From the NCBI GenBank assembly GCA_030592465.1, contig JAUVJB010000002.1, forward strand, positions 1 to 40,897: 40,897 nt of DNA, in the 5' to 3' direction. The stretch is from Bacteroidota bacterium (GTDB lineage: Bacteria > Bacteroidota > Bacteroidia > Bacteroidales > B39-G9). The translations under genes and the position numbers were made by a program. The notes under the pieces were generated by a model that was not told the origin of the DNA, did no database searches, and worked only from the letters and a program-made list of their open reading frames with translations. Below, one piece after another: positions 140 through 28,883 of the stretch (within the stretch, counting starts at the first letter, position 1; each line of letters begins with the position of its first letter).

Positions 140-175
140 TTTGGAACAGGTTTTGGAACGTGTTTTGGAACGTAG
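140..175. repeat. 12-bp tandem repeat x3 (tttggaacaggt / tttggaacgtgt / tttggaacgtag)
   Basis: Direct reading of the sequence. An 11-bp tandem caaccaacgca x2.4 follows at 199-225. Both lie inside the transposase remnant. Confidence 0.85.
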
Positions 176-199
176 AGACGCAATGCATTGCGTCTCTAC
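172..199. repeat. Perfect 28-bp palindrome with a GTAG head (gtagagacgcaatg|cattgcgtctctac), REP-like hairpin
   Basis: The reverse complement of 172-185 equals 186-199 exactly. A related copy is at 8472-8499. Confidence 0.9.
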
Positions 200-418
200 A
201 ACCAACGCACAACCAACGCACAACAAACGATACAGCCAAACCAAAAAATATATTTGGGCCACAACGCAAAAATTTGGCATCCATAAAACGCTGTATTAAA
301 TCTGCGGTAACAACACAAGCACAACAAATTAAACCGAATTTTGCATGGCAATCACGATATCACGACCATATTATTAGAAACAACGGTGAATATCAACTGA
401 ATACAAAAATATAAATAT

Positions 419-4184: not shown

Positions 4185-4198
4185 ATAATTATATTCTC

Positions 4199-4645: not shown

Positions 4646-4666
4646 ATAATATTATTTTAAATTAAG

Positions 4667-6151
4667 TTAATCAACATTATCAAACAGATATGAATTATTG
4701 TGATTAATATTAGCATTATCACCACTTTCATCGTCGGACAAAGTGAACCTTGATATTTCTGTGCTGTCTTCTGAAAATAAGTTAAAATCCTCTAAATCAA
4801 TATCTTTTCTTTTGTAAGCCGGCACTTCCTCTAGTTCATCAATATTAGCACTTTTTAAATTGTTATTATTTCTCAATTTATTTCTGTCTAAACTGTTAGT
4901 TCTCTCACAAGACGTTTTAGGTCTTCTAAAATTTTTGCTTGCGTCTTCACTGCCATCCTCTCTTGTTGAAAGTTTAATATCAACATCTTTCTCATTTAAC
5001 TCAACTTTTTCAACATTAGTTTTACTAAATTTTATTTTTTTCTGTGCAGACGCAAAATTATCTCTCTTATTTAAAACTTTATTCTCAACCTCAAATGTAA
5101 TATTTGAATTAATATTTTCATCAAGAGAAATTTTTTCTTTCTTTTCAACATGTTTAACCGCAAATTCAGGAATAGCTTCAGTATTAAACCCTGTTGCAAT
5201 AATTGTAACAGAGATTTTTCGTCCCAAACTTTCATCAAGAGCATTACCCCAAATAATATCGGCATCTAAACCCGATGCATCTTGCAGATAATCAGTTATT
5301 TGACCAATTTCATCAACTTTTATTTCATCTTCTCTACCGGAACGTATATTCAGTAAAATATTTTTTGCTCCCCTAATATCATTATCATTCAAAAGAGGTG
5401 AATTTAAAGCTTCCTGAATAACTCTAAGTGCTCTATCATCACCTTCGGCAACAGACGAGCCCATTAAAGCAACTCCGCTATTAGTCATAACAGTATGCAC
5501 ATCAGCAAAATCAACATTAATATTACCCGGGACAGTAATTATCTCAGCAATACCTTTAGCAGCAATAGTTAACACATTATCAGCATTGGAAAAAGCTTTA
5601 GAAAACGGCAGATTGCCATAAATTTGTCGTAATTTTTCATTGTTAATAATAAGCAATGAATCAACATATTCTTTTAATTCAGCAATACCTTGAATAGCTT
5701 GATCGATTCGTCGTTTACCTTCAAACTGGAAAGGGATTGTAACAATAGCAACTGTTAAAATACCATTTTCTTTTGCCTCTTTAGCAATAATAGGAGCAGC
5801 ACCGGTACCTGTACCTCCACCCATACCGGCAGTAATAAAAACCATTTTTGTATTATGAGATAACAATTCAGTTATACTGTCAAGACTCTCAATTGCAGCT
5901 TGTCTTCCCATTTCGGGGTTATTACCTGCTCCACGTCCTTGTGTTAAAGTTTCGCCAAGCTGAATTTTTATTGGAACAGAGCTGCGCGCAAGGTCTTGTG
6001 CATCAGTATTACATACTACAAAATTCACATCAGTTATTCCCTGTTCATACATATAATTAACAGCATTACTACCGCCACCACCTACTCCAATAACTTTTAT
6101 TATTGAAGATTTTTCTTGTGGTAAATCAAAATTTATTAAATCTTCTAACAT
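4667..6151 (-). CDS. ftsZ: Cell division GTPase FtsZ
   Basis: Tubulin/FtsZ signatures [13 protein letters not shown] and [13 protein letters not shown]. The ORF-track start at 6223 is a TTG abutting a repeat. The first ATG ([27 protein letters not shown]) at 6151 fits homolog N-termini better. Confidence 0.95.
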
Positions 6152-6223
6152 AATGATATATTGTTGAGACCTTCCAGAGTCTGAAAGACCTGAAAGAGTC
6201 GGGTTAATTGTTATATTGTTCAA

Positions 6224-6287
6224 TTGTTAGACACGAATTTCACGAATTAACACGAAAAATTAGTGAAAATTTGTGTAATTAGTGTCA
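6224..6287. repeat. cacgaatt-word repeat module (ttgttagacacgaatttcacgaattaacacgaaaaatt plus an inverted partner ending gtaattagtgtc)
   Basis: The 38-mer at 6224-6261 recurs at 12521-12558 with 2 mismatches. A 17-nt piece (ttagacacgaatttcac) recurs at 45-61. gacac at 6230-6234 pairs with gtgtc at 6283-6287 as an imperfect inverted repeat. Confidence 0.85.
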
Positions 6288-6293
6288 AAGATT

Positions 6294-6335
6294 GTAAAAT
6301 CTAAAATCTAAAATCTAAATTCTAAATTCTAAATT
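6294..6335. repeat. 7-bp tandem repeat x6 (gtaaaat ctaaaat ctaaaat ctaaatt ctaaatt ctaaatt)
   Basis: Direct reading. The last unit overlaps the ftsA stop codon (6334-6336). Confidence 0.9.
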
Positions 6336-7635
6336 ACATTTTCCCATCATCTACCTCAAACATATCACTAAATTTTTCGAGGAAACCACTAAATATTTTT
6401 TTCTTCTTTCCTGAATCATTATCAACATTTTCTTGATTAGATGTATTAATTTCTTCAACATTATCAAAATCATTAAGCTCATGTTCATCATACCCTTTTA
6501 AAATCAAACCGATAGCTGTAGCATACTTAGGTTGGTTAATATCATCAACCACATCACTTGTTAAATGTTCATTAGGAAAACCAATACGCACATCCATTCC
6601 TGTTTTATATGCAACCAATTGAGGTAAATTTTTTAATAAAGCACCACCTCCTGTAATAACAATACCGGCACCTAATTTATCGGCAAAACCTGAAGTTTCA
6701 ATTTCAAAATAAATTTCACCTATTATTTCTTCCATTCTTGATTGAATGATATGAGCTAAACTTTTAAAAGAAATTTCTTTACTTGGTCTTCCACTAATAC
6801 CGGGTATAGTAACAACTTTATTCTCTTGTGCCTCATCGGCAAGTGCTGAACCGAATTTAATTTTTAAAGCCTCAGCTTGACGTTCTAATATTGAACATCC
6901 TATTTTTATATCATTGGTAATTATATTGCCTCCAAAAGGGATGACTGCAGTATGACGAATAATGCCATCGTAATAAACAGCAACATCAGTTGTACCACCT
7001 CCAATATCTGCTAAAGCAACGCCAACTTCTTTTTCATCTTCGGTTAAAACCGCATTAGAAGAAGCCAATGGCTCAAGAATTAATTTATTCACGTTTAAAC
7101 CTGCTCTATTAATGCACTTTTTTATGTTATTTCCGGAAGCTGTTTGACCGATAACAATATGGAAATTAGCTTCAAGTCGTTTTCCAAACATACCCACAGG
7201 ACTTTTCACACCTGTTTCATTATCAACAATAAAACTTTGAGGCAAAACATGAATTATTTCTTCACCAACATCAATAGGTATTCGATGCATGTCATCAATT
7301 AACATCTGCACATCTTCTTGGGTAATTTCCTCATCGTAAGTTTCCCTGTTAATATAGCCTCTGTTTCTAATGCTACGAATATGTTGTCCTGCTATTCCAA
7401 CAAAAGCATTATTAATTTTACAGTTAGAACTTTCTTCAGCCTGTTTAATTGCATCATTAATTGAATTAACAGTCTTATCAATATTAAGCACTACACCTCG
7501 CTTAACCCCGCTTGATGCAGAGTTGCCTAAGCCCAAAATTTCTAATTTTCCGGTTTTATTTTTCTTGCCAATTATGGCTACAATTTTTGTACTACCAATA
7601 TCAATAGCAGCAACAAAATTTTCTTTTTGGCTCAT
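6334..7635 (-). CDS. ftsA: Cell division protein FtsA
   Basis: Actin-like ATPase motifs AAIDIGSTKIVAIIG, DIGGGTTDVAVY and VITGGGALLKNL. The gene lies between ftsQ and ftsZ. Confidence 0.95.
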   Translation of the reverse strand: MSQKENFVAAIDIGSTKIVAIIGKKNKTGKLEILGLGNSASSGVKRGVVLNIDKTVNSINDAIKQAEESSNCKINNAFVGIAGQHIRSIRNRGYINRETYDEEITQEDVQMLIDDMHRIPIDVGEEIIHVLPQSFIVDNETGVKSPVGMFGKRLEANFHIVIGQTASGNNIKKCINRAGLNVNKLILEPLASSNAVLTEDEKEVGVALADIGGGTTDVAVYYDGIIRHTAVIPFGGNIITNDIKIGCSILERQAEALKIKFGSALADEAQENKVVTIPGISGRPSKEISFKSLAHIIQSRMEEIIGEIYFEIETSGFADKLGAGIVITGGGALLKNLPQLVAYKTGMDVRIGFPNEHLTSDVVDDINQPKYATAIGLILKGYDEHELNDFDNVEEINTSNQENVDNDSGKKKKIFSGFLEKFSDMFEVDDGKM

Positions 7636-7639
7636 ATAC

Positions 7640-8440
7640 TTATTTTTTTGTACAAATAATTTGATTACTATATTTTAAATTTATGCTTTTATATTTATTC
7701 CATCCTACTTTTGAGAATCCTTGCTTATATAACGCTTTTAATTTAGAAAACTTTTTATTAAAATCTTCAATATCACCAAACAAAATAATTTGAGAACCAA
7801 CTCTTGGTATTAATTCATATTCATTATTTTTAACATAAATTTGTTCAATTTGTGAATTCCAAAATTTATCATTATGAATAAACTTTGCCATAAGGTAAAT
7901 ATCACACAAAACACAATGTCGTTTTAACTCATCATTTTTTGACGAAGATAAAATATCTGTTGAGTAATTTAATGCATAAGGCTCATTAATATCGCCACTC
8001 GCAACTAACACACGAGCCGTATAATTTTTAGAAAGTGGCATTAATGCACCTTGCTCATCAATATAATAACTTTCGTTGTTATAATTAATTATTCGAACAA
8101 TTGGCGTCCGCTGTTCAATATCAATTTTTAAAACACCTTTTATTGTGCGGTAAACTTCCGATTTTTTTATAGACGGATTGTAATTAATTAAATCTTCCAG
8201 ATTAGCCAAATTAATACTATCAATAGGATAACCTAATAATTTTTCGCCTTTATCATAAATCATTGATATAACATCGTCTTCTTCAATAAAACGATTATGT
8301 GAATTATCAATAATATCAACATCAACAGAACTGCAAGGTATTTGTTTCTCTTTTTCAGAAACAAAACTAAAAGCAATTATTAAATAAGCAATTATTGCTA
8401 CCCAAAAAAATATTTCTTTTATATTTTTAATTCGTACCAT
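7640..8440 (-). CDS. ftsQ: Cell division protein FtsQ
   Basis: 266 aa with one N-terminal TM (IFFWVAIIAYLIIAFSFV) and a POTRA/FtsQ-like periplasmic part. Synteny is murC-ftsQ-ftsA. Confidence 0.8.
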   Translation of the reverse strand: MVRIKNIKEIFFWVAIIAYLIIAFSFVSEKEKQIPCSSVDVDIIDNSHNRFIEEDDVISMIYDKGEKLLGYPIDSINLANLEDLINYNPSIKKSEVYRTIKGVLKIDIEQRTPIVRIINYNNESYYIDEQGALMPLSKNYTARVLVASGDINEPYALNYSTDILSSSKNDELKRHCVLCDIYLMAKFIHNDKFWNSQIEQIYVKNNEYELIPRVGSQIILFGDIEDFNKKFSKLKALYKQGFSKVGWNKYKSINLKYSNQIICTKK

Positions 8441-8471
8441 ATTTAGTTTTTTATAGTCATTTGGGGTTTAT

Positions 8472-8499
8472 GTAAAGACGCACGGCAGTGCGTCTCTAC
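8472..8499. repeat. GTAG-type REP-like hairpin (gtaaagacgcac ggca gtgcgtctctac)
   Basis: 12-bp stem with one mismatch. The agacgc...gcgtctctac core is the same as at 172-199. It reads GTAG-agacgc on the minus strand. Confidence 0.85.
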
Positions 8500-8507
8500 C
8501 ATAAACA

Positions 8508-9890
8508 TCAAACCTTTGTTTCTAAATATTCTTTAACGGGTTGAACCAACCTGTCGATGTCACCTGCACCAAGCGTTAATACAACCTGCAAATCTTGTTG
8601 TTTTAATACATCAATTAATTCACTTTTTGAACAAATAATTTTATTTTCAATGTTCACCTTATCAAAAATTATTTTTGAACTAACTCCTTTAATAGGGAAC
8701 TCGCGTGCCGGATAAATATCGAGCAAAATTAAACTATCGAGCAATTCTAAACTTTTTGCAAACTCTTTTGCAAAATCGCGAGTTCTTGAAAATAAATGAG
8801 GTTGAAAAATCCCTGTTATTTTCTTATCAGGGAACAACTCCCTCGTTGAAGAAATACTTGCTTTAAGCTCGTTCGGATGATGAGCATAGTCATCAATATA
8901 AATTAAATTATTTGTCTTAATAATATAATTAAAACGCCGTTTTACTCCTTTCGAAGTACTCAGCGATTTTCTAATATCGTTTTCGTCAACTCCGAGTAAA
9001 TAAGCAACAGCAAAAGCTGCTATTGAATTTTCAACATTAAACAAACCCGGCAAACCTATTTCAACATTTTTAACCACATTATCGGGAGTTACAATATCGA
9101 CAAAATAAATTCCATTATTAAGAGTAATATTAGTTGCATAAAAATCGGCTTTAGAATTTAAAGAATATGTAAACTTCTCAACACCTTTATTTAATTCGTA
9201 ATTAATATCAATACTTTTTTTAATTAACAGTTTACCATTTACTTTAATTTGCTGAATAAACTGTGCAAACGATTCCTCCAAATGGTGCTTGTTACCGTAA
9301 ATGTCGAGATGATCAGCATCAACAGAAGTTACTATACCAAAATAAGGATATAATTGAAGAAATGATTTATCAAACTCATCAGCTTCAACAACAATAAAAT
9401 CACTTTTGTTTGATAATAATAAATTGCTATTATAATTATTTGAGATACCACCCAAAAAAGCACTGCAGTCAAATTTCGATTGCTTAAGTATATGCGCAAT
9501 TAGAGTAGAGATAGTGGTTTTACCATGAGTGCCCGCAACAGCAATTCCTTGTTTATCGTTTGCTATAAGTCCAAGTATTTTTGAACGTTTATATATTTGA
9601 AAATTATTAATCTTAAAATAATTTAACTCAGAATGATTCTTGGGAATTGCAGGAGTATATATTATTAAAGCTTTATTAATATCAGTTGTGTATAATTCGG
9701 GTATATTTTGAATATTATCATTAAAATGAATATTAATACCTTCATTAATTAACTCATCGGTTAATGTTGTTGGCGTTTTGTCATAACCCGCCACATTCAT
9801 GTCTAACGACTTAAAATATCGTGCAATGGCGCTCATACCAATTCCGCCAATACCAATTAAATAAACATTATGTATTTTGTTAATATCCAT
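8508..9890 (-). CDS. murC: UDP-N-acetylmuramate--L-alanine ligase MurC
   Basis: N-terminal GIGGIGMSAIA, Mur ligase P-loop AGTHGKTT, and dcw synteny. Confidence 0.95.
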   Translation of the reverse strand: MDINKIHNVYLIGIGGIGMSAIARYFKSLDMNVAGYDKTPTTLTDELINEGINIHFNDNIQNIPELYTTDINKALIIYTPAIPKNHSELNYFKINNFQIYKRSKILGLIANDKQGIAVAGTHGKTTISTLIAHILKQSKFDCSAFLGGISNNYNSNLLLSNKSDFIVVEADEFDKSFLQLYPYFGIVTSVDADHLDIYGNKHHLEESFAQFIQQIKVNGKLLIKKSIDINYELNKGVEKFTYSLNSKADFYATNITLNNGIYFVDIVTPDNVVKNVEIGLPGLFNVENSIAAFAVAYLLGVDENDIRKSLSTSKGVKRRFNYIIKTNNLIYIDDYAHHPNELKASISSTRELFPDKKITGIFQPHLFSRTRDFAKEFAKSLELLDSLILLDIYPAREFPIKGVSSKIIFDKVNIENKIICSKSELIDVLKQQDLQVVLTLGAGDIDRLVQPVKEYLETKV

Positions 9891-9928
9891 TATTGAGCTT
9901 ATTTTAAAGTAATAAAGTTAAAAGTTTA

Positions 9929-10166
9929 GTAACCGTTTCCGGGTTTAAATTATTACACTAAAAATTGTTATATTGTTAAATTGCTAAATTGTTATAATTA
10001 AGATATAAAGGCAATTATTATAACCATTTAACCATTTAATACCGATGGTTCGGGATATAATTTAATATCATCCAATTATAAATACTTCTTTTCCATATAA
10101 ACAATTTAACAATTTAGCAATTTAACCATTTAGCTATCCGCCAGCTGGCGGACTGAGAACGGTTAC
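9929..10166. repeat. Mosaic palindromic element E1 (MITE/BIME-like) filling the murC-murG spacer
   Basis: It is bounded by gtaaccgtt (9929-9937) and aacggttac (10158-10166). It contains left module 9944-9970, internal inverted repeats 9972-9993 / 10100-10121, block 9997-10024, and right module 10132-10166 with hairpin tccgccagctggcgga (10137-10152). All of these modules recur elsewhere in the window. Confidence 0.85.
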
Positions 10167-10201
10167 AAAATTATTAACTTTTTATACCCGACTCCTTATT
10201 A

Positions 10202-11311
10202 TTATTCAATCATTTTTAAAATTTCGTTTGCAATTATTTCATCAGAATTTGTTACAGCTAATTTGGAAATATTTTCTGATAAGTTTTGCATTTTTTCTGT
10301 ATCATTAATTAAGTTTAACGCCTGATCAACAAGCACTTCTCTTGCTTGATTATCTTTAATTAATATTGCTGCATTTTTATTAACCAAAGCCATTGCATTT
10401 TTTGTTTGATGGTCTTCGGCAACATTAGGCGAAGGGATTAATATTACCGGTTTTTTCACTAAACATAGTTCTGAAATAGTTCCTGCACCGGCTCTCGAAA
10501 TAATAATATCGGCAACAGCATAAGCATAATCCATTCTTGTTATAAAATCATAAACTTTAATAGTTTTATTTTTATAATTATATCTTAATAATTCCATTTT
10601 TGCTTTTTCAAAAAATGTTTTTCCTGTTTGCCAGATAAGCTGAACATCACTTCTGATAAATTTATCTATATCATTACAAATACTTTGATTAATAGTGCGA
10701 GCACCGAGACTACCTCCTATTACCAAAATAATTTTTGACTTATCATTTAATTTAAAATATTTGGAAGCATCAGTTTTTTTATTTTTAATATCAAATAAAT
10801 CTTTACGAATAGGATTTCCCGTAAATATAATTTTTTCTTTTGGAAAAAATCTCTCCATATTCTGATATGCTACACATATTTTATTAACTCTTTTAGATAG
10901 TAACTTATTGGTTATGCCTGCATACGAATTTTGTTCCTGAATTAAAGCAGGTATTCCTTTTTTAGATGCAATGTAAAGCAAGGGTCCGCTCGCATAACCG
11001 CCAACACCAACTACAGCATCAGGTTTAAACGATTTAATAATTTTTCGTGATTTTAATATACTTATTAACAACTTAAAGAAAAAAGTAATGTTCTTAAAAG
11101 TTATTCGACGCTGAAACCCATTAATAGGAAGACCAATAATATTATAGCCTGCAGCAGGCACCTTTTCCATTTCCATTTTGCTTTTTGCTCCTACAAATAA
11201 AATCTCAATATTTTTATCGATTCTTTTGAGTGCATTAGCAATTGAAATGGCAGGGAAAATATGTCCCCCTGTACCGCCACCACTAATTATTATTTTTTTA
11301 CTCATCTTCAT
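10202..11311 (-). CDS. murG: Lipid II glycosyltransferase MurG
   Basis: GGGTGGHIFPAISIA motif and dcw synteny. The ORF-track start at 11314 is TTG; ATGs are at 11311 and 11305. The gene overlaps the ftsW stop (11298-11300). Confidence 0.95.
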   Translation of the reverse strand: MKMSKKIIISGGGTGGHIFPAISIANALKRIDKNIEILFVGAKSKMEMEKVPAAGYNIIGLPINGFQRRITFKNITFFFKLLISILKSRKIIKSFKPDAVVGVGGYASGPLLYIASKKGIPALIQEQNSYAGITNKLLSKRVNKICVAYQNMERFFPKEKIIFTGNPIRKDLFDIKNKKTDASKYFKLNDKSKIILVIGGSLGARTINQSICNDIDKFIRSDVQLIWQTGKTFFEKAKMELLRYNYKNKTIKVYDFITRMDYAYAVADIIISRAGAGTISELCLVKKPVILIPSPNVAEDHQTKNAMALVNKNAAILIKDNQAREVLVDQALNLINDTEKMQNLSENISKLAVTNSDEIIANEILKMIE

Positions 11312-12458
11312 CAATTAAAATTAAATCATCAGTTTCTTGCACTTTACGACTAACATTAATCACTATTCCCATTGCAATGCTTGTAAATATTATTGAAGTA
11401 CCCCCCATGCTTACAAACGGTAATGTTTGACCTGTTACCGGAAAAATATTAACAGCAACAGCCATATTTATCATAGCTTGAAAAACAATACTAAAAGTTA
11501 AGCCTATAACTAAAAATGCAGGAAAAGTTCTTTCACATTTTTTAACAATAACACCTGCACGATATAATAAAATCAGATATAATAATAAAATAAAAAAACC
11601 ACCGACAAAGCCATATTCTTCAATAATTATTGCATAAATAAAATCGGAATAAGGATGTGGTAAAAAATTACGTTGTGTACTATGTCCGGGACCTTTACCA
11701 AATACACCTCCGGTAACAATTGCTATTTTAGATTGATTAATTTGATAATTACCACTATCATCATCTTTATCAACATAATTTTCTATTCTTTTTTTCCATG
11801 TTCCTACTCTCCCATGATCAGGAGAATTAAGAACAACTAATACAAAAATTCCAAAAAATACTAGGCCAATACCAATTATCGCAAATAAATATTTTAAACT
11901 AACTCGCCCCACAAACATTAATATTAAAGAGGTTGCAAATAAAATAGCTGCTGTAGAAAAATTAGCAGGCAGAATTAAACCACACACAACTATAATAGGT
12001 AATACAATAGGTTTAAAAGCCTTTTTAAAATCTTTGATATGCTCTTGTTTGCTCGATAATAACCTTGCAATGTAAATTATTAGTGCAAATTTTGCTAAAT
12101 CGGAAGTTTGAAACGACAAACCTATGCCCGGTAAAGTTATCCAGCGTGAAGCCTGATTAAGACTTATTCCTTTAAATAAAGTAAAAATTAATAAAGGAAT
12201 AGTAATGTATAATAATAATTTTGATAATAAATAATAATATTTATATGAAATTGTATGAAAGATATAAGTAATTCCTAATCCTGCAATTAAAAAACTTGTA
12301 TGTCTTAAAAAATAATATGTTGTATTTCCTCCCATTTTTCGATAAGCAAGAGTGCCTGTTGAACTATAAACAGCTAACATAGAGAAGATACCTAATATAA
12401 AAATCACTATCCATATAACAGTATCACCTTTAAAATATTTAGAAAGCTTTTCTTTCAT
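11298..12458 (-). CDS. ftsW: SEDS-family peptidoglycan polymerase FtsW
   Basis: Polytopic membrane protein with the SEDS block LPHPYSDFIYAIIIEEYGFVGG. The gene lies between murD and murG. Confidence 0.9.
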   Translation of the reverse strand: MKEKLSKYFKGDTVIWIVIFILGIFSMLAVYSSTGTLAYRKMGGNTTYYFLRHTSFLIAGLGITYIFHTISYKYYYLLSKLLLYITIPLLIFTLFKGISLNQASRWITLPGIGLSFQTSDLAKFALIIYIARLLSSKQEHIKDFKKAFKPIVLPIIVVCGLILPANFSTAAILFATSLILMFVGRVSLKYLFAIIGIGLVFFGIFVLVVLNSPDHGRVGTWKKRIENYVDKDDDSGNYQINQSKIAIVTGGVFGKGPGHSTQRNFLPHPYSDFIYAIIIEEYGFVGGFFILLLYLILLYRAGVIVKKCERTFPAFLVIGLTFSIVFQAMINMAVAVNIFPVTGQTLPFVSMGGTSIIFTSIAMGIVINVSRKVQETDDLILIDEDE

Positions 12459-12475
12459 TTATTAATATTTAAATA

Positions 12476-12663
12476 ATCGTTCACACATTGCTTTAAATTA
12501 TTATATTAAAAATTGTTAAATTGTTAGACACTAATTTCACTAATTAACACGAAAAATTATTGTTAAATTGTTATTGTTAATATATAGTATTTGCAAGAAA
12601 ACTAAGTCATTTATTATTATTCGTCATTGCCTCTCCGCCAGCTGGCGGACTGTGAATGGTTAC
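12476..12663. repeat. Mosaic palindromic element E2 filling the ftsW-murD spacer
   Basis: The 28-mer cgttcacacattgctttaaattattata (12478-12505) is identical to 28623-28650. The cacgaatt-type 38-mer at 12521-12558 matches 6224-6261. The 22-mer at 12559-12580 is identical to 33673-33694. The 22-mer at 12582-12603 matches 33577-33598 with 1 mismatch. The right module tccgccagctggcggactgtgaatggttac is at 12634-12663. Confidence 0.9.
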
Positions 12664-12671
12664 AATAAAAC

Positions 12672-14012
12672 TTACAATTCTCTTACAGCCATTTTAAATT
12701 GTCTTCCTCTGTCTTCATAATTTTCGAACAAATCGAAACTTGCACAAGCAGGCGACAGTAATACAACCTCGCCTTTCTTGGCAAGATAATAAGCAGCACT
12801 AACTGCTTCTTCAATTGATGCAGCATCAACAATTGTCTCGGTAAAATCGGCAAAAACTTTATGTATCTTTTTGTTATCGACACCAAGACAAATAATTGCT
12901 TTCACTTTGCTCTGTACTAAATCGGTTAAAATTGAATAATCATTACCTTTATCGATTCCTCCAACAATCCAAACTGTAGGTTTTTTCATGGTTTCAAGGG
13001 CATACCATGTAGAGTTAACATTAGTAGCTTTTGAATCGTTAATAAATTCAATACCATGAACTTTAATCACCGGTTCTAAACGATGTTCAACACCTTGAAA
13101 ATCTGCAAGACTTTCTCTAATAATTTCTTTTCTTATTTTCAATACTTTACCGGTTAATCCGGCAGCCATTGAATTATAAGTATTATGCTTTCCTTGTAAA
13201 GCTAAATCTTGTATTGACATGATAAAATTACTGTTAGTCATATTTATTATTATATTATTATTTTCAACATAAGCACCATCACTATCTTTAATACTAAGAG
13301 AAAATGGCATTTTTCTAGCATTAATATTTCGTTTTTTTAATTCATTGTTAACAACCTCATCATCAGAGCAATAAATTAAATAATCATTAGAAGTAAGATT
13401 TTGTGTAATACGAAACTTTGAATTAACATAATTTTGAAACACATTATCATACCTATTCAAATGATCAGGTGTAATATTCATTATTATTGCAATATCAGGT
13501 TTAAAATCATACATTCCGTCAAGCTGAAAACTGCTAAGTTCAATTACATAATAATCGAATGAATTTTGAGCAACCTGTAGAGCAAAACTTTTGCCTACAT
13601 TACCCGCCAATCCAATATTTAATCCGGCTTTTTTTAACAAATGATAAATCATTAGTGTTGTAGTAGTTTTACCATTGCTGCCAGTTACACATATTTTTTT
13701 AGCATTAGTATAAGCACCTGCAAATTCAATTTCGGAAATAATTTTAATCTTGTTCTCAATTATTTTTTTTATGATAGGAATACTATCCGGTATCCCCGGA
13801 CTTTTTATGATTAAATCTGCATTTAAAATTAAATTTTCAGTATGTTTACCCTCTTCCCAATCAATATTATTATTAATAAGAACATCTTTATATTTTTGAT
13901 TAATGCTTCCATTATCGGAAACAAAAACTTCGAAATTTTTCAATTTTGATAGAATGGCGGAACCAACACCACTTTCACCTGCTCCTAATATTACGGTTCT
14001 TTGTTTATTCAT
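12672..14012 (-). CDS. murD: UDP-N-acetylmuramoylalanine--D-glutamate ligase MurD
   Basis: GAGESGVG N-terminus and P-loop GSNGKTTT. The ORF-track start at 14021 is TTG; the first ATG is at 14012 (MNKQRTVILGAG). Confidence 0.95.
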   Translation of the reverse strand: MNKQRTVILGAGESGVGSAILSKLKNFEVFVSDNGSINQKYKDVLINNNIDWEEGKHTENLILNADLIIKSPGIPDSIPIIKKIIENKIKIISEIEFAGAYTNAKKICVTGSNGKTTTTLMIYHLLKKAGLNIGLAGNVGKSFALQVAQNSFDYYVIELSSFQLDGMYDFKPDIAIIMNITPDHLNRYDNVFQNYVNSKFRITQNLTSNDYLIYCSDDEVVNNELKKRNINARKMPFSLSIKDSDGAYVENNNIIINMTNSNFIMSIQDLALQGKHNTYNSMAAGLTGKVLKIRKEIIRESLADFQGVEHRLEPVIKVHGIEFINDSKATNVNSTWYALETMKKPTVWIVGGIDKGNDYSILTDLVQSKVKAIICLGVDNKKIHKVFADFTETIVDAASIEEAVSAAYYLAKKGEVVLLSPACASFDLFENYEDRGRQFKMAVREL

Positions 14013-14026
14013 TTTTGACAAATTGT

Positions 14027-15274
14027 TTATCTAATTTTAAGAGTAACAATAGTGATAACAGCGAGCAGCACACCAATAATCCAAAATCGGGTAACAATTT
14101 TTGATTCGTGATAACCTAATTTTTGATAATGATGATGCAACGGAGCCATTAAAAAAACACGTTTACCTTGTCCATATCTTCTTTTAGTATATTTAAAATA
14201 CCCTACCTGAATTATAACAGACAAACTCTCAATAAAAAATATTCCACATAAAACAGGGATAAGCAATTCTTTATGAATAATAATTGCAAAAACAGCAATA
14301 ATACCACCAATTGACAGACTCCCTGTATCGCCCATAAAGACTTGTGCAGGATATGAATTATACCATAAAAATCCAATGGTAGCACCTATAAAGGCACTGC
14401 AAAAAACTACCAACTCACCTGTATATGGTATATACATTATATTAAGATATTGAGAATAAATAACACTACCAGAGACATAAGCGAGTATAGCGAGAGTAGC
14501 ACCAATAATAGCAGAAGAGCCGGTAGCCAAGCCATCGAGTCCATCGGTCATGTTTGCACTATTTGATACAGCGGTAATAATAAAAATAACAGCAATAAGA
14601 AAAACAAGCCATACCCATTTTTGTGCAGCTTTTTCACCTAAAAAAGAAACTAATTTTGCATAATCGCCTTCGTTATGTTTAAAAAAAGGTATTGTTGTTT
14701 TTGTCGATTTTATATCACGAGTAACATATTTTACATTATTATTAACATTATCAACACCTTCAACAACCAGGCTACTTGGAGTGTCAATTTTAACTCTTTC
14801 TCTAATAATAACATCGTTATTTAAATAAAGAGTTAAAGCAACAATAATACCGAGAATAACTTGTCCTAAGATTTTAAACCAACCGGCTAATCCCTTTTTG
14901 TTTTTCTTAAATACTTTGATATAATCGTCGATAAAACCAATAAAGCCAAGCCATACCGTAGTAATAATCATTAAAATAATATAGATATTATCTAATTTTG
15001 CAAATAATAATGTTGGGATAAGAATTGAAGCAATAATAATTAAACCTCCCATTGTAGGAGTACCTTTTTTTTGCATTTGTCCATCGAGACCTAAATCCCG
15101 AATTGTTTCACCAATTTGTTGTCGTTGTAATAATTTAATAACTTTTTTACCATATCGCATCGAAATTATTAACGAAGTAATAATAGCCAATGCCGAACGG
15201 AATGATATATATTGAAACATTCCTGCACCGGAGAAATTTAATTTATCTAAATAATCAAAAATATAATAAAACAT
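14027..15274 (-). CDS. mraY: Phospho-N-acetylmuramoyl-pentapeptide transferase MraY
   Basis: Motifs [17 protein letters not shown] and HHHY in a polytopic membrane protein. Confidence 0.95.
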
Positions 15275-15282
15275 AAAGTTTG

Positions 15283-15336
15283 ATGTTTAAAGTTTAATAT
15301 TTAAAGTTGCATTTTCCATTGTTAAATTGTTTAGTG
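15283..15336. repeat. Short AT-rich word modules in the mraY-murE spacer
   Basis: atgtttaaagtttaa (15283-15297) is identical to 36646-36660. attgttaaattgtt belongs to the ttgttaaattg word family seen at 9972, 12516, 12559 and 33673. Confidence 0.6.
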
Positions 15337-15348
15337 TTTCGGCATTTA

Positions 15349-16800
15349 CTACTGAAATAATTGTCCTACAATTTCTTTATCGTCAAAATGATTTCTGACG
15401 CCATTAATATCCTGATAATTTTCGTGTCCTTTGCCTGCAATTAAAATTATATCGCCTTTTTTGGCAAACATATATGCTGTTTTTATGGCTTCTTTTCTAT
15501 CAATAATCGAAATAGTATTTTTTAAAAATATTGGTTCAATACCTTTCTTCATATCATAAATAATATCTTCGGGATTTTCCGATCGAGGATTATCAGAAGT
15601 TAAAATTACTTTATTGCTCAACTCAGAAACTATTTTAGCCATTAACGGGCGTTTGGTTTTATCTCTGTCTCCTCCCGCACCCACAACAGTTATAACTTGC
15701 TCATTACCCGAACGTATTTGATTAATGGTAGTTAAAACATTTTTTAATGCGTCTGGGGTATGAGCATAATCAACAATAGCAGTAATTCCATTGTCGGAAC
15801 GGATATACTCAAAACGTCCTTTAACAGAATTTAAGCTGCTGATATTTTGTAAAACCTCATCTTTTTTTTGATTTAATAATATTGCAACAACATAAACAGC
15901 TAATAAATTAGATGCGTTAAATTCTCCTATTAATTTAGTCCATACTTCAATGCCATTAACATCTAACAACATGCCTTCAAAATGACTTTCTAAAACATTA
16001 CATCTAAAATCAGCAAACGAATGAATTGCGAAAGTGTGTTTTTTTGCTTTAGAATTTTGCAACATAAATTCACCATTTCTGTCATCAACATTTGTCAATG
16101 CAAAAGCAGTATCAGACAAATTATCAAAAAACATTTTTTTGGCATTAATATATTCTTTAAATGTTTTATGATAATCTAAATGGTCTTGAGTAATGTTTGT
16201 AAATATTCCTCCTTTAAAATTTAATCCTGCTATTCTGTTTTGAACTATTGAATGGGAGCTTACTTCCATAAAGCAATAATCGCAACCGGTATCAACCATT
16301 TTACTTAACAACTCATTTATTTTTATAGCATCAGGGGTTGTATGTGTTGACGCAACAATTTTGTTATCAATAATATTATTAACAGTAGAAATTAGCCCTG
16401 ATTTATAACCAAGCTTTTTAAACAAGCCAAACAACAATGTTGCAATAGTAGTTTTCCCATTTGTGCCGGTAACACCAACTAAAATTAATTTTTTGGAAGG
16501 ATTGTCGAAAAACTCGGATGCAAAAAAACCAAGAGCATAATGGGTGTCGTTCACAAGAATATATGTAATATCAGATATTATATCTCTTGGCAGCACTTCG
16601 CAAACTATTGCAACAGCGCCCATCTCAATAGCTTTATCAATATAATTATGTCCATCGACCTGAGTGCCCTTTAAAGCAATAAATAATTGGTTTTTATCAA
16701 TTTTACGTGAATCAAAATTAATACCGGCTATATTAATATCTGTATTGTCAATAATTTTATTGATGTTGACCTTTTTTAATATTTCATTTAATGCTTTCAA
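15349..16800 (-). CDS. murE: UDP-N-acetylmuramoyl-tripeptide synthetase MurE (meso-DAP type)
   Basis: P-loop GVTGTNGKTT and the DNPRSE motif. The start codon at 16800 is TTG, with no nearby in-frame ATG. Confidence 0.95.
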   Translation of the reverse strand: MKALNEILKKVNINKIIDNTDINIAGINFDSRKIDKNQLFIALKGTQVDGHNYIDKAIEMGAVAIVCEVLPRDIISDITYILVNDTHYALGFFASEFFDNPSKKLILVGVTGTNGKTTIATLLFGLFKKLGYKSGLISTVNNIIDNKIVASTHTTPDAIKINELLSKMVDTGCDYCFMEVSSHSIVQNRIAGLNFKGGIFTNITQDHLDYHKTFKEYINAKKMFFDNLSDTAFALTNVDDRNGEFMLQNSKAKKHTFAIHSFADFRCNVLESHFEGMLLDVNGIEVWTKLIGEFNASNLLAVYVVAILLNQKKDEVLQNISSLNSVKGRFEYIRSDNGITAIVDYAHTPDALKNVLTTINQIRSGNEQVITVVGAGGDRDKTKRPLMAKIVSELSNKVILTSDNPRSENPEDIIYDMKKGIEPIFLKNTISIIDRKEAIKTAYMFAKKGDIILIAGKGHENYQDINGVRNHFDDKEIVGQLFQ

Positions 16801-16804
16801 TATA

Positions 16805-18919
16805 TTATATCAGTTTAATTGTTATTTCATTTCCTTTTTTAATTCTTGTGCCGGGCAAAATCGACTGTTCTGTAACTGCTCCTGCTCCTTCAACAGTAAC
16901 CTTCAACCCAACATTCTCAAGAATAAACAAAGCATCTTTTGCACCCATACCTTTAACATTAGGCACAACTTTACTTTTAATTAATCTATTCTGATACAGA
17001 ATATTAGAATTAGTTTTTGTTGTAACCACCCAGTCGGAATTAGTATTATTTTTAGCAACAGGTATTGATAAAGCAGCACATACATTATCTAAATCTTTTT
17101 TATAACCGCTTTTTGAATACGGAATTTTATCAGCCAAAATGTTATTATTATTAATGATATTTTTTTGCAGATCAATGTCAATAGAATATACTTTATCAGC
17201 TATTTCTTTAAAAACAGGACCGGCAACTAAGTTGCCATAATAAACATTATTTAAAGGAGCATTAACAACCACAATACAAGAATATTTTGGATTATCAGCA
17301 GGGAAATAACCACCAAATGAAGCCTGATAACTTATTTTTGATTTGTATTTATATCCATATTTACGATTTGCAATTTGAGCCGTACCGGTTTTCCCTGCAA
17401 TCTTATAATCACTATTTCTCAAATTTCTTGCAGTACCCTCTTCAACAACACCTTCTAACATTTTTTTTGCTTTTTTAATGGTTGACTTGGAGCATATTGA
17501 ATGATTAATAACCTCTGTACCATAAGTTTTAATAATATCGCCATGATCTTTAATTGCCTTAACGAATCTTGGTTTTACCATTTCTCCATCATTAGCAATA
17601 GCATTATAAAAAGTAAGTATTTGTAAAGGTGTTAAACGAATTTCATATCCAATTGATATTTGAGGCAGTGAAATACCTGACCATAAAGGATCTCCCGGAT
17701 ATTTTATATATGGTTTGCCTTCACCCTTAATTTCAATACCTGTTTTTTCGTTAAGATGCATACTGTAAAGTCGCTTCACAAATTTTTTTTCATTATTATA
17801 ATAATACTTTGTAATAATTTTAGAAATTCCTACATTTGAAGAAACTTCAAAGACTTGTTTAACTGTTATTTTCCCGTGTCCTCCAATTTTCGAGTCTCTA
17901 ACAGGAAAACCATAATATTTCACCACACCGTCACCAGTATCAACACTATCGTCTAAATCAACATAACCATCTTCTAAAGCAACTATTAACGATGCTAATT
18001 TAAAAGTTGAACCAGGCTCTGTACTTTCACCAATTGCATAATTATATTCTTCCCGATAATTACCAAGTTTATCTCTTGTTAAATTTGTAATAGCTTTAAT
18101 CTCTCCGGTTTTAACTTCCATCAACACAACACAACCATGACCTGCATCATGTTTTTTTAATTGTTTTAATAATGCATTTTGTGCAACATCTTGAATATTA
18201 ATATCAATTGTAGTAATAATATCTTTGCCATCTTGAGGTTCTACTTCGTTACCATCATTTATGGGCATCCAAACATTAGACGAAATTTTTTGCATTAATT
18301 TTATGCCATTAATACCCTTTAATTCCCTGTTAAAAGCTCCTTCAATTCCAACTATTGTTCCGGATTCTCCTTTATTCAAATAACCTATTGTACGCGAAGC
18401 GAGATTTACAAATGGCTGTATTCTTTTATTTTCTTGTGAATATATAACCCCACCCTTATATCTTCCTAATCTAAATAAAGGAAATTGCTTTAATTGTTTT
18501 AACTGTTTATAATTTACTTTTCGCTTAATTAGATGATAGCGTTCGCCTCGAAAACGTGCACTAATTAATTGTCGTTTATATTCTGATTTTAATTTATCTC
18601 CAAACAAATTTGACAAGCATAACGCAAGAGAATCAACTTTCTCATTAAATATTTTATTAGAAAGAGCTTCACTTTTAAGGTCCATTCTTATTTCATAATA
18701 TGGCAATGAACTTGCTAACAATCTGCCATCATCAGCACAAATATCACCTCTGTTTGCGTCAATAGTAATATCTTTCATAGTTAGAGTATTGGCTTTATCC
18801 CATTTATTCTTCTCAATGGTTTGCAAATAAACTACTTTGCCTATTATTACAATTGCGAGAGCAAGCATAATTACATAAACAAAACCAACTCTTAATAATA
18901 TGTCTTTTTTTACGCCCAT
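16805..18919 (-). CDS. ftsI: Class B penicillin-binding protein FtsI/PBP3 with a C-terminal PASTA-like domain
   Basis: N-terminal TM and transpeptidase motifs STFK, SSN and KTGT. The C-terminal 54 aa (VVPNVKGMGAKDALFILENVGLKV...GNEITIKLI) are PASTA-like. Confidence 0.95.
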   Translation of the reverse strand: MGVKKDILLRVGFVYVIMLALAIVIIGKVVYLQTIEKNKWDKANTLTMKDITIDANRGDICADDGRLLASSLPYYEIRMDLKSEALSNKIFNEKVDSLALCLSNLFGDKLKSEYKRQLISARFRGERYHLIKRKVNYKQLKQLKQFPLFRLGRYKGGVIYSQENKRIQPFVNLASRTIGYLNKGESGTIVGIEGAFNRELKGINGIKLMQKISSNVWMPINDGNEVEPQDGKDIITTIDINIQDVAQNALLKQLKKHDAGHGCVVLMEVKTGEIKAITNLTRDKLGNYREEYNYAIGESTEPGSTFKLASLIVALEDGYVDLDDSVDTGDGVVKYYGFPVRDSKIGGHGKITVKQVFEVSSNVGISKIITKYYYNNEKKFVKRLYSMHLNEKTGIEIKGEGKPYIKYPGDPLWSGISLPQISIGYEIRLTPLQILTFYNAIANDGEMVKPRFVKAIKDHGDIIKTYGTEVINHSICSKSTIKKAKKMLEGVVEEGTARNLRNSDYKIAGKTGTAQIANRKYGYKYKSKISYQASFGGYFPADNPKYSCIVVVNAPLNNVYYGNLVAGPVFKEIADKVYSIDIDLQKNIINNNNILADKIPYSKSGYKKDLDNVCAALSIPVAKNNTNSDWVVTTKTNSNILYQNRLIKSKVVPNVKGMGAKDALFILENVGLKVTVEGAGAVTEQSILPGTRIKKGNEITIKLI

Positions 18920-18931
18920 TAATTATAAAAC

Positions 18932-19309
18932 TTATTTTTTTTCAATAATTATTTTTTTCGGCGGCACAACAGATTCCTTTAAATCTAATCCATTCTTTTC
19001 TACAAGTTTAGCCACTTCTGATTGTTTGCTAATATACATTAGCTCTGAACTATTTGTAATTGCTTCAGCACGCAATTCTTTAACTTCGTTCTGTAAAACA
19101 ATAGTTTCTCTCACAATTTTTTCAGCCTGATAGCGATTTCCTATGTATATTATTGCTATAAGAGTAAGAAATAATATATAAGGAATTTGTTTAATAACAT
19201 TCTCACTTGTTAGAAAACTGCCACCAATAATATCTTTTATTGACCCTTTTTTATTATTTTGGGTGGCAGAATCTAATTCTTCAAAGGTTTTATCGTTATT
19301 ATACTTCAT
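18932..19309 (-). CDS. ftsL: FtsL-like small bitopic division protein
   Basis: 125 aa with a single TM (IPYILFLTLIAIIYIG) followed by a coiled-coil-like segment. The position between rsmH and ftsI is the canonical one. Confidence 0.7.
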   Translation of the reverse strand: MKYNNDKTFEELDSATQNNKKGSIKDIIGGSFLTSENVIKQIPYILFLTLIAIIYIGNRYQAEKIVRETIVLQNEVKELRAEAITNSSELMYISKQSEVAKLVEKNGLDLKESVVPPKKIIIEKK

Positions 19310-19317
19310 CCGGTCAT

Positions 19318-19542
19318 AATTTTAACATATATTACCTGCCCCGCAATTTGCCCCGTAGCGAAGCGTACTGGGGCGAAGCGTATCGGGGTCATTAATTGTC
19401 AATAAACAACTAAATGACAACAAATGACCCCGTGAAATATTGCTTCGCCATTACGAAATATGCTTCGCATTTCATTTGGTAAACATTTCACAGGGCAAAC
19501 AAATCACATTACACAAAATATAACCACGCAAAGTATATAATT
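19318..19542. repeat. aatgaca/gcgaagc-family long imperfect palindrome (copy A) in the ftsL-rsmH spacer
   Basis: cggggtcatt (19384-19393) pairs perfectly with aatgaccccg (19423-19432). The flanking arms carry gcgaagc / gcttcgc words. The 17-mer ccccgtagcgaagcgta (19351-19367) equals 40632-40648. Positions 19394-19420 match 40800-40826. The right-end module matches 22157-22200 and 40711-40751. Confidence 0.85.
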
Positions 19543-19568
19543 ATTCATGAGCTATTATTTTTTTATTA

Positions 19569-20468
19569 TTATACACGTTGCGCGATTCGAAGTTTCGCAC
19601 TTCTTGCTCTAACATTATTTTCAATTTCATTTTCGTTGGGAACAATTACTTTTTTATTCACAGCCTTAAAAAGAACTTTAAAATTCCCATAAAAATCTTT
19701 TTCAACCTCACCTTCAAATTTCCCTTTTTTAATATAATTCTTAACCAATCTATCTTCTATTGAATGATAAGTAATTACAACTAATCGACCATCCTTTTTA
19801 ATAACATCGCCCGATTGCATTAACAGGTCTTTTAAAGAATCAACCTCCCCATTAACCTCAATACGTAAAGCCTGAAACACTTTTGATAAATATTTATTCT
19901 CTCTGTTTTTCGGCATGCAATCACTAATAATTTCTTTAAACTGATTAATAGTTTTTATTTCATTTGTTTTTCTATAATTTACAATAGTGTTAACCAACTT
20001 TAAGGTATTACTTATTTCTCCATATAATTTAAAAATATTATAAAGTTGTTTTTCATGATAAATATTTAAAACATGTTTTGCTGTTATTGATGAATTTTGG
20101 TTCATTCTCATATCGAGCTCGCCATCAAATCTGTATGAAAAGCCACGCCCTGCTACATCAAAATGATGAGAAGAAACGCCCAAATCAGCAAACAAACCAT
20201 CAACTTGTCCAATATTATAATATCTTAAAAAATTTTTTAGGTATCTGAAATTATGGTTAACAAATAGTAAGCGTTGGTCGTTAATAACATTTAACACTGC
20301 ATCTTTATCTTGATCAAATGCAATTAATTTACCTTTTGTTAATTTCTTTAGAATCTCTTTTGAATGACCACCTCCACCATAAGTAACATCAACATAAGTG
20401 CCTTCAGGATTAATATTTAAGCCTTCAATACTCTCATTTAAAAGCACAGGTATGTGATAAGCTTTCAT
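19569..20468 (-). CDS. rsmH: 16S rRNA (cytosine1402-N4)-methyltransferase RsmH (MraW)
   Basis: Motifs HIPVLLNE, GGGGHS and DLGVSSHHFD. The start overlaps the mraZ stop by 1 nt. Confidence 0.95.
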   Translation of the reverse strand: MKAYHIPVLLNESIEGLNINPEGTYVDVTYGGGGHSKEILKKLTKGKLIAFDQDKDAVLNVINDQRLLFVNHNFRYLKNFLRYYNIGQVDGLFADLGVSSHHFDVAGRGFSYRFDGELDMRMNQNSSITAKHVLNIYHEKQLYNIFKLYGEISNTLKLVNTIVNYRKTNEIKTINQFKEIISDCMPKNRENKYLSKVFQALRIEVNGEVDSLKDLLMQSGDVIKKDGRLVVITYHSIEDRLVKNYIKKGKFEGEVEKDFYGNFKVLFKAVNKKVIVPNENEIENNVRARSAKLRIAQRV

Positions 20469-20935: not shown

Positions 20936-20973
20936 TATAAATTACTTATTAAACGTAAAAATAAGAATTTTTT

Positions 20974-20998
20974 CCCACTTACAACCACATTTCCCCAT
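20974..20998 (-). promoter_or_regulatory. Putative MraZ operator: three direct RTGGK repeats at exact 10-bp phasing
   Basis: The minus strand reads ATGGG-5nt-GTGGT-5nt-GTGGG (plus-strand cccac 20974-20978, accac 20984-20988, cccat 20994-20998), 39-63 nt upstream of the mraZ ATG. A fourth in-phase GTGGG lies at 21034-21038. Confidence 0.45.
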
Positions 20999-21121
20999 TT
21001 TTTTACACAATTGTTAATAACTTTCTAACATCACCCACCAACAATCATCGCAATATGCTATATATCAGCATATTACATAAGCCACGAACAAAAAAAAATT
21101 ATTTTAAATAAGCAGGTATTT

Positions 21122-21135: not shown

Positions 21136-21156
21136 TAAAGTAAAATTATATTTTTT

Positions 21157-28580: not shown

Positions 28581-28621
28581 TAGTCCTGATTTAAAAAATT
28601 TAATAATAAATATATTTGTAA

Positions 28622-28883
28622 GCGTTCACACATTGCTTTAAATTATTATACTAAAAATGGTTAAAACTTGTCCGACTGCCGGCGGATTGTTGAGCTTTAG
28701 CGAAATCCCAATCCATCGGGATTAAGATATAAGGGGAATTATTATAACAATCAGTCAAAAGTCAGTCCGTCAGCTGACGGATAAACTCTAACAAGTTTTA
28801 ACTATCTAACCCTGATACGCTCATACTTCGCTACAGGACAGACAATTCAGCTATCCGCCAGCTGGCGGACTGTGAACGGTTAC
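28622..28883. repeat. Mosaic palindromic element E3 containing nested element Y (28660-28802)
   Basis: Left module 28623-28663. Outer inverted repeat gttaaaacttg (28660-28670) / caagttttaac (28792-28802). Hairpins at 28671-28686 and 28766-28781. Small hairpin aatccc...gggatt at 28704-28723. Block 28721-28748 matches 9997-10024 at 26 of 28 positions. The right-module 35-mer 28849-28883 equals 10132-10166 with 1 mismatch. Confidence 0.9.

Follow-up and report, generated by a model that had tools for sequence, protein, structure and literature searches.

Small repeats of genome-wide distribution, probably mobile, occupy the long gene junctions of a Bacteroidales division and cell wall operon

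The division and cell wall (dcw) operon is among the most conserved gene arrays of bacteria, and its tight junctions are usually read as a sign that co-expression is required. Here we analyse the dcw operon of a Bacteroidota bacterium (assembly GCA_030592465.1), which lies on a contig of 40,897 nt (JAUVJB010000002.1, positions 1 to 40,897 of the forward strand); this whole stretch of DNA is called the window below. The window is contig C214 of a 2.89 Mb genome in 317 contigs, the longest of 46 kb, that is 88% complete; other C-numbers denote further contigs of the same genome. It has a G+C content of about 30%, and the closest public relatives of the source genome are uncultured Bacteroidales. 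All 13 dcw genes are present, on the minus strand, in the order mraZ-rsmH-ftsL-ftsI-murE-mraY-murD-ftsW-murG-murC-ftsQ-ftsA-ftsZ. NCBIfam models name 11 of them; FtsL and FtsQ gave no hidden Markov model match and are named from their position and their collinearity with relatives. Measured on the open reading frame (ORF) coordinates, many junctions are as tight as expected of an operon: mraZ and rsmH overlap by 1 nt, ftsW and murG also overlap, and ftsL-ftsI, ftsI-murE, mraY-murD and ftsQ-ftsA are 12, 4, 5 and 4 bp long, respectively. Six junctions are long, namely rsmH-ftsL (259 bp), murE-mraY (74 bp), murD-ftsW (213 bp), murG-murC (311 bp), murC-ftsQ (67 bp) and ftsA-ftsZ (110 bp, or 179 bp if FtsZ starts at 6154). 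These values reproduce all the junction lengths listed in an earlier note on this DNA, which had been made from the sequence alone.

Every one of the long spacers has sequence in common with 14-91 further intergenic spacers of this genome, and their modules recur within the window too, which bears out the proposal in that note that the long junctions are assembled from modules found elsewhere. We consider it probable, from comparison of the sequences, that the six junctions are gaps colonised by small non-coding mobile repeats spread genome-wide, with at least four kinds of element stacked or nested in them.

Two assemblies of the same genus (L001 and L002, here called congeners) share 82.9% and 82.7% nucleotide identity with the window, respectively, and 85.3% with each other. 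Both keep the dcw gene order, and the differences fall exactly at the long junctions. The murG-murC junction, 311 bp in the window, measures 6 bp in L001 and 9 bp in L002; murD-ftsW measures 213 bp against 69 and 68 bp, and ftsA-ftsZ 179 bp against 56 and 47 bp, so that the latter spacer is some 120 nt longer in the window. At rsmH-ftsL the lengths are 259, 188 and 18 bp in the window, L001 and L002, and at murE-mraY they are 74, 426 and 442 bp, a gene of the four-helix-bundle (4HB) family being present there in both congeners. The murC-ftsQ hairpin stands in place of AT-rich sequence of the relatives. Alignment of the orthologous spacers, which had been suggested as a check, therefore reveals presence/absence polymorphism of whole elements between the window, L001 and L002: the elements are lineage-specific insertions, and they carry no intrinsic terminator. 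The relatives' spacers are in favour of mobile insertions, with gains and losses alike probably having contributed. The final 14-17 nt leading up to the start codon (39 nt at ftsL) have kept a resemblance to the relatives at four of the six junctions. The dcw spacers of the window add up to 1128 bp, as compared with 25-421 bp in more distant Bacteroidota whose clusters have no whole-gene insertion. Large dcw insertions in distant relatives were considered as repeat elements and rejected, since one (L008) is a masked stretch splitting mraY and another (L024) an unrelated lipoprotein-like gene. A scan of JGI metagenomes for closer relatives gave nothing nearer than 60% MurG identity, and an exact-protein look-up of MraZ returned only one contig of 1 kb.

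Repeats of this type break assemblies, and with 317 contigs, a maximum of 46 kb and 88% completeness, the metagenome-assembled genome (MAG) might have had repeats mis-joined into its dcw contig. Such an artefact is very improbable, given that the flanking genes are all intact and collinear with relatives, that an independent assembly, L001, carries an orthologous rsmH-ftsL element at the same position, and that typical read pairs exceed the elements in length and the flanking sequence is unique.

The murD-ftsW and murG-murC junctions each contain a copy of an element that we call family A. The first (12473..12663, minus strand) has the terminal inverted repeats (TIRs) GTAACCATTCACA and TGTGAACGATTAT and comprises, besides octamer arrays, the palindrome TCCGCCAGCTGGCGGA at 12634-12649 and a CGTG/AGTG repeat module at 12527-12556. 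The second (9929..10166, minus strand) has the TIRs GTAACCGTT and AACGGTTAC; its palindrome occupies 10137-10152, and its octamer arms, which are inverted, span 10100-10131 and 9962-9995. A third complete copy in the window lies outside the dcw operon in the same sense orientation (28618..28883, minus strand), with AAATATAA and AAATATAT as its 8-bp flanks. Across the genome, family A is non-coding, multi-copy and intergenic, with a typical length of 190-240 bp and a range of 82-266 bp. Its TIRs are 13 bp long (GTAACCGTTCACA / GTAAGCGTTCACA), GTAACCGTTCACA ... TGTGAACGCTTAC also occurring as paired ends, and the ends begin with GTAAGCG or GTAACCG. In the interior, TCCGCCAGCTGGCGGA adjoins the left end, and there are inverted AAATTGTT octamer arms and a conserved right-end module. 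Target duplications are found at six of nine complete copies, whose AT-rich flanking octamers are identical at 7-8 of 8 positions; the mean match is 6.0/8, as against a control mean of 3.7/8. GTAAGCG ends together with 8-bp direct repeats are the signature of IS66 (PMC11946415), and family A shows both. [quoted passage not shown]

Exact family A ends number nine in this genome and 21 in G003, an assembly from another genus of the same family, and are absent from L001 and L002. So patchy a distribution suits a mobile element and suggests either horizontal spread or differential loss. No pair of family A TIRs in the genome of the window encloses a transposase. At C193:7111-7951, family A ends and octamer arms surround a 205-aa ORF with a signal peptide and a beta-barrel-like appearance; this could possibly be a non-transposase cargo, or an ORF flanked by two solo ends by chance. 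We also observed a strand skew: over all contigs of the genome, the exact GGTTATAATTTTAACAT copies are split 11:0 between the plus and minus strands of their contigs and the exact GTAACCGTTCACA copies 1:8, which is unexpected if the orientation of contigs is arbitrary, and looser patterns are balanced (14:9 and 15:16).

The 16-nt GC palindrome TCCGCCAGCTGGCGGA is found well beyond family A. There are 144 exact copies in the genome and about 239 when variants are counted, 93% of them intergenic; they are set among many unrelated flanking sequences, and the palindrome apparently behaves as an independent insertion unit. Exact copies number eight in each congener and 0-5 in 38 other genera of the order; by these counts the palindrome went through a species-specific burst. 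It is situated no more than 30 nt from an upstream stop codon 14 times and from a downstream start codon once (P = 0.001), and an overall preference for the stop side is absent (59:53).

A different hairpin occupies the murC-ftsQ junction (8466..8507, minus strand), with the core GTAGAGACGCAC-TGCC-GTGCGTCTTTAC at 8472-8499 and the stem extension TGTTTATG/CATAAAC. Its family has 16 copies in the genome, 11 of them headed by GTAG, and conforms in sequence to a repetitive extragenic palindrome (REP), that is, an imperfect palindrome rich in GC, some 20-40 nt long and with a conserved GTAG at its 5' end. The palindrome TCCGCCAGCTGGCGGA does not conform to it, being perfect and lacking a GTAG head. 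Nor did we see the organisation of bacterial interspersed mosaic elements (BIMEs): the spacers hold single palindromes in unrelated modules and no alternating REP pairs. At the other end of the window, a decayed fragment resembling a REP-associated tyrosine transposase (RAYT) spans 160..414 on the plus strand, ends in FAWQSRYHDHIIRN and contains, at 174-201, the perfect palindrome GTAGAGACGCAATGCATTGCGTCTCTAC, which is of the same family as the murC-ftsQ hairpin. The fragment matches NF047646 weakly (20.6 bits vs a cutoff of 80). A short tandem repeat of the GTTTTGGAAC type precedes the fragment within window positions 1-414. The hairpins that flank the intact RAYT-like genes on C2 and C16 are different ones, and there is a further Y1-type gene on C71; the C16 gene has GC-hairpin flanks and scores 51.7 bits with NF047646, below the cutoff. 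Directly before it, in the region C16:3-2141, is an ORF that we take to resemble the C-terminal part of Cas9. The link between the murC-ftsQ hairpin and a RAYT gene is no more than suggestive.

The ftsA-ftsZ spacer is a stack of modules on the minus strand (6166..6333). Heptamers (TTTAGAA/TTTAGAT) are arrayed at 6295-6333 and octamers at 6203-6229, and two hairpins, a CGTG one and a TTTCAG one, lie at 6230-6286 and 6166-6200, respectively. The heptamer and CACGAATT units also flank a 4HB gene on C36, and it is to such genes that the remaining dcw spacers lead.

The rsmH-ftsL junction holds an element of a second family, family B (19300..19537, minus strand), with TIRs at 19514-19537 (TATACTTTGCGTGGTTATATTTTG) and 19300-19325 (TTAAAATTATGACCGGATGAAGTATA); the long TIR of the family is TATACTTCACTCGGTTATAATTTT and its inverse. 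Nested within the element is a hairpin module (GCCCTGTGAAAT...ATTTCACGGGG; 19428..19496, minus strand) that is part of a long predicted hairpin and has 28 genome copies covering at least 60% of its length. Beside it, GTCATT / AATGAC short repeats form inverted arms that enclose no gene (19388..19428, minus strand), and there is a second nested GC hairpin module (CCCCGATACGCTTCGCCCCAGTACGCTTCGCTACGGGG...; 19335..19388, minus strand) with 33 partial matches in the genome. A shorter ortholog of the element is found at the same position in L001 and none in L002; in the L001 copy the first module is largely missing, the second is missing, and 17 nt of the arms are identical. Family B is collinear with a cassette elsewhere in the genome (C85:7405-8022) in which the same arms enclose a gene of family PF05635. 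Paired copies that lack the gene number 31 in the genome and measure 123-387 bp, a single copy of 623 bp has the gene, and no target-site duplication was found for the family. The rsmH-ftsL element is, to judge from this collinearity, a gene-less derivative of a 4HB-gene cassette.

Both congeners carry such a cassette with its gene inside the dcw operon, at the murE-mraY junction (L001:5743-6184 and L002:5728-6185). The gene in L002 (5764-6141) matches TIGR02436, the 4HB family of intervening sequences (IVS) in 23S rRNA, with 82.5 bits vs a cutoff of 24. In the congeners it is bracketed by inverted AAATTGTT/AACAATTT arrays, and the left octamer array includes the murE stop codon; a premature TAA stop interrupts the gene in L001, and that of L002 is intact. 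The corresponding spacer of the window (15275..15348, minus strand) has octamer units (AACAATTTAACAAT) at 15316-15334, AAACTTT units at 15275-15309 and no hairpin, and appears to keep array remnants only.

Arrays and 4HB genes go together more widely. Seven 4HB genes were found in the genome of the window, most of which, as read by eye, have a 7-10-nt unit of their own arrayed in inverted orientation on the two sides (the C287 gene being unclear). The dcw-spacer units GTCATT and AGATTTT recur at 4HB genes of this genome, and AATGGTT/AATTGTT-like units flank the one on C240. Among 27 4HB genes sampled in other genomes of the order, 22 have flanks that form an inverted repeat (z > 4), nearly always of tandem units. 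The AAATTGTT arrays of the genome show an arm-core-arm polarity in 50 pairs and the opposite in 3, with cores of 7-582 nt. An ORF of the PF05635/TIGR02436 type within inverted repeats is therefore present in the congeners, in this genome and at 22 of the 27 sampled loci, and the dcw spacers of the window hold the arms only. From the shared units, the polarity and the flank repeats, it follows that the array hairpins of the dcw operon have the architecture of cassette arms without the gene. We found no description of an array-armed 4HB layout outside rRNA intervening sequences in the literature searched. The 4HB gene on C287 (2427-2792) lies among genes of a respiratory-complex-like cluster, which includes a match to NADHdh (PF00146) at 5481-6338.

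How special, then, is the dcw operon? Repeats cover 48% of intergenic bases genome-wide. If a junction is called module-bearing when it has a module common to at least three other spacers, then 563 of 1489 co-directional junctions (0.378) are module-bearing; modules are also found in convergent and divergent spacers and almost never within ORFs. Six of the 12 dcw junctions bear modules, which does not differ from the genome background (binomial P = 0.28), and an enrichment of modules in the dcw operon was therefore rejected. Nevertheless, the operon ranks among the highest four when the 28 runs of twelve consecutive co-directional junctions are compared, such runs being few in this assembly, and the ribosomal-protein operon of the same genome (C94:96-11159) has none of its approximately 21 junctions invaded. 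In the respiratory-complex-like cluster on C287, a single internal junction bears a module, and the 4HB gene is present besides. The density of insertions, which had been called unusual, is so in comparison with the dcw clusters of other Bacteroidota and with further long operons of this genome, the ribosomal-protein operon among them, and it is not so in comparison with the average junction of the genome.

We next consider what the elements might do in RNA. On the transcribed strand, four spacers fold far better than shuffled sequences: rsmH-ftsL (z = -4.4), murG-murC (z = -3.4), ftsA-ftsZ (z = -5.5) and murC-ftsQ (z = -7.0). The murD-ftsW spacer has a single local GC hairpin (z = -1.1), and that of murE-mraY is unstructured and not palindromic (z = +1.05). 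The description of all six spacers as structured in the earlier note thus holds for four of them. Its other structural remark, that no T-run follows the hairpins on the minus strand, agrees with our terminator scan, which found no terminator-like site on the transcribed strand of any of the six spacers. A covariance scan of window positions 4000-23000 with Rfam 15 gave no spacer match at E <= 1, the only weak match lying outside the spacers (4133-4208), and there was no convincing small ORF in the three longest spacers. Separately, 3' of ftsZ (window 4126-4666), the first 40-89 nt are 85-90% identical to both congeners; this stretch and the ends of the rsmH-ftsL element are the only two conserved non-coding stretches that we found around the cluster.

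These hairpins could represent adaptive RNA punctuation, in which REP/BIME- or Correia-like structures would let mur and fts segments differ in stability and so determine the ratios of their expression. The folding of the four spacers (z = -3.4 to -7.0) and the lack of terminators would fit this, as would the sense orientation of family A discussed below and the presence of an RNase III gene in the genome (C193:18863-19240). There are also precedents: RNase III binds and cleaves Correia elements, one of which, as far as PMC2649163 reports it, is located in a Neisseria dcw cluster, and the same enzyme excises the IVS of Coxiella (PMC4990558). Nonetheless, punctuation seems unlikely. The congeners' orthologous junctions have no elements or different ones, the same modules are present in 38% of co-directional junctions as well as in convergent and divergent spacers, and five of seven module families have no orientation bias. 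Moreover, the palindrome TCCGCCAGCTGGCGGA is merely excluded from the vicinity of start codons and shows no preference for the stop side, and the murE-mraY spacer has no structure at all. As a general explanation, punctuation is less likely than tolerated selfish DNA; for the rsmH-ftsL element by itself such a role is possible.

Outward-facing promoters within the elements might alternatively split the dcw operon into several transcription units. Correia elements (PMC2649163) and the BrickBuilt element (PMC4596501) provide precedents for this, and in N. lactamica a Correia element is reported to generate a promoter upstream of a dcw gene (Snyder et al., 2003, in the form cited in PMC2649163). 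Given its sense bias, family A also sets its AT-rich right end 5-60 nt 5' of downstream start codons. Yet no Bacteroidota-type promoter (TTTG-N17-23-TAnnTTTG) was detected on the transcribed strand in the spacers, apart from one isolated TAnnTTTG, and sigma-70-like matches were at the level of shuffled sequences (115 vs 104.5 +/- 10.5). Upstream of mraZ the scan was blank as well, so that its sensitivity is low. Internal promoters are therefore a rather improbable explanation.

We return to the reading of the elements as tolerated selfish DNA, which the earlier note had offered as the alternative to punctuation, and which fares better. It is strongly backed by the presence and absence of elements in relatives, by the TIRs and 8-bp duplications of family A, by copy numbers of tens to hundreds that are mostly intergenic, and by the species-specific burst of the palindrome. 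The elements are probably mechanistically ordinary selfish DNA, tolerated in an essential operon under an unusually heavy load. They would persist because RNA polymerase reads through them, and insertions would survive only where the translation-initiation region is spared and left unstructured. Read-through together with an unstructured initiation region would account for the positional asymmetry and the orientation bias with no need for a function. Tolerance of selfish DNA, shaped by selection around start codons, thus explains most of the data.

Several observations weigh against this reading. The movement of the elements was itself not observed. PF03050, the IS66 DDE transposase, is absent from this genome and from L001, L002, G003 and G005 (the last another member of the family), which is weak evidence because the assemblies are fragmented MAGs. 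In co-directional spacers, family A is oriented 13 sense to 1 antisense relative to the flanking genes (P = 0.002). This bias suits the avoidance of start codons, yet it also fits a role at the RNA level; a replication-linked orientation was considered and rejected, there being no association with local GC skew (13:10). A further deviation from neutrality concerns the two ends of the element at rsmH-ftsL. Its head (63 nt, including 28 nt of single-copy flank) is 95% identical between the window and L001 and its tail 92%, compared with 56% at the four-fold sites of six flanking genes (n = 837) and 84-89% in adjacent coding DNA; the region upstream of mraZ cannot be aligned between the two. The TIR part is equally similar to paralogous copies and to the L001 ortholog, and the 28-nt single-copy flank has no paralogues. 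Recent recombination was rejected as the cause, since the flanking coding DNA is only 84-89% identical. The conserved ends thus look like the product of constraint and not like neutral junk.

The ftsL ATG (19307-19309) lies within the second TIR of family B, the transcribed strand reading ...ACCGG ATG AAG TAT A.... In L002, which has no element, ftsL begins GTG AGG GAT TTA before the common AAT AAC GAT. The element therefore supplies the first ftsL codons in the window and L001. In both species a stem formed by the two TIRs is predicted to bury the ftsL AUG (fold z = -4.7 in the window), which, together with the 92-95% identity of the ends against 56% at neutral sites, counts in favour of a punctuation-like role at this junction.

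In the polycistronic mRNA, folding models predict that the elements should form long hairpins. By analogy with known systems, these would be plausible sites for RNase III or barriers to exonucleases, and shifts in mur and fts mRNA might be a predicted side effect. Some effect on mRNA processing is plausible since the genome encodes RNase III, and this enzyme cleaves both Correia elements and the Coxiella IVS. A more speculative extension, which we regard as doubtful, is that the array-armed hairpins are 'intervening sequences' of mRNA, in which RNase III would cut the stems and 4HB proteins encoded elsewhere in the genome might bind their cognate 7-10-nt arrays. If so, the operon would fall into mur and fts segments of independent stability, and the stem burying the element-supplied ftsL start would be a regulated switch, which would explain the 92-95% conservation of the element ends.

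Whatever the outcome, half of the dcw junctions have absorbed 70-300 bp of probably mobile hairpin DNA within one genus, with no gene lost. The operon therefore serves as a naturally occurring test of the amount of intercistronic structure that can be tolerated in an essential operon, with selection apparently removing hairpins beside start codons. It also brings together IS66-type MITE ends, REP-like palindromes and the short-repeat arms of 4HB cassettes, which are usually treated apart. Should the hairpins prove to be processed in mRNA, the REP/Correia paradigm would be extended to Bacteroidota.

MITEs and REPs within operons are well known (review PMC3184786), and each kind of element in the window has counterparts. 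Family A resembles IS66-derived MITEs in its GTAAGCG/GTAACCG ends, in the 8-bp repeats at six of nine copies and in being small, non-coding and intergenic. It differs in its shorter TIR (13 bp, compared with the 20-30 bp reported for IS66), in an interior of tandem octamer arms and a GC palindrome that is not known in IS66 elements, and in that no IS66 transposase was found in its own genome or in four relatives. The GC-rich palindromic hairpins in operon spacers, devoid of T-runs, recall the REPs and BIMEs of enterobacteria, particularly at murC-ftsQ (GTAG-headed in 11 of 16 copies), and the genome has RAYT-like genes, intact on C2 and C16 and decayed at 160-414 with a palindrome of the family. 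However, neither palindrome family of the dcw operon flanks an intact RAYT, and the alternating REP orientations with defined linkers that make up BIMEs are not seen in the dcw spacers.

The Correia repeat enclosed elements (CREE) of Neisseria are likewise intergenic MITEs that are co-transcribed, form hairpins and vary among close relatives. They have no sequence similarity to the elements described here and possess 26-bp TIRs, a TA duplication and a site for integration host factor (IHF); RNase III processing and promoter activity have been demonstrated for CREE and are conjectural for the elements of the dcw operon. Within the Bacteroidota, the BrickBuilt MITE of Porphyromonas gingivalis is similar in being intergenic and strain-variable, with small inverted-repeat ends and an internal tandem repeat (PMC4596501). 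It shares no sequence with our elements, however, and has one 23-nt minisatellite in a single orientation, whereas here 7-10-nt units form two inverted arrays with nested GC hairpins. The heptameric repeats of Xanthomonas and Nostoc (GGGNATC type) are also 7-nt tandem units that are transcribed and enriched between co-oriented genes (PMC4692102), but they are G-rich and quadruplex-forming, and the units here are AT-rich and arranged in inverted pairs.

Finally, the ORF-bearing 23S IVS of Coxiella burnetii and Leptospira, like the cassettes described here, have a PF05635/TIGR02436 gene enclosed by long-stem inverted repeats, and that of C. burnetii is considered selfish and is cut out by RNase III (PMC4990558). 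The elements of the window are situated between protein-coding genes and not in rRNA, and five of the six dcw spacers hold arms or remnants without a gene; the same gene-in-arms layout surrounds 22 of the 27 genes sampled in the order and occurs in the dcw operon of L001 and L002. In summary, the elements of this operon belong to known kinds; what is remarkable is their load, and what is noteworthy is their link to 4HB cassettes.

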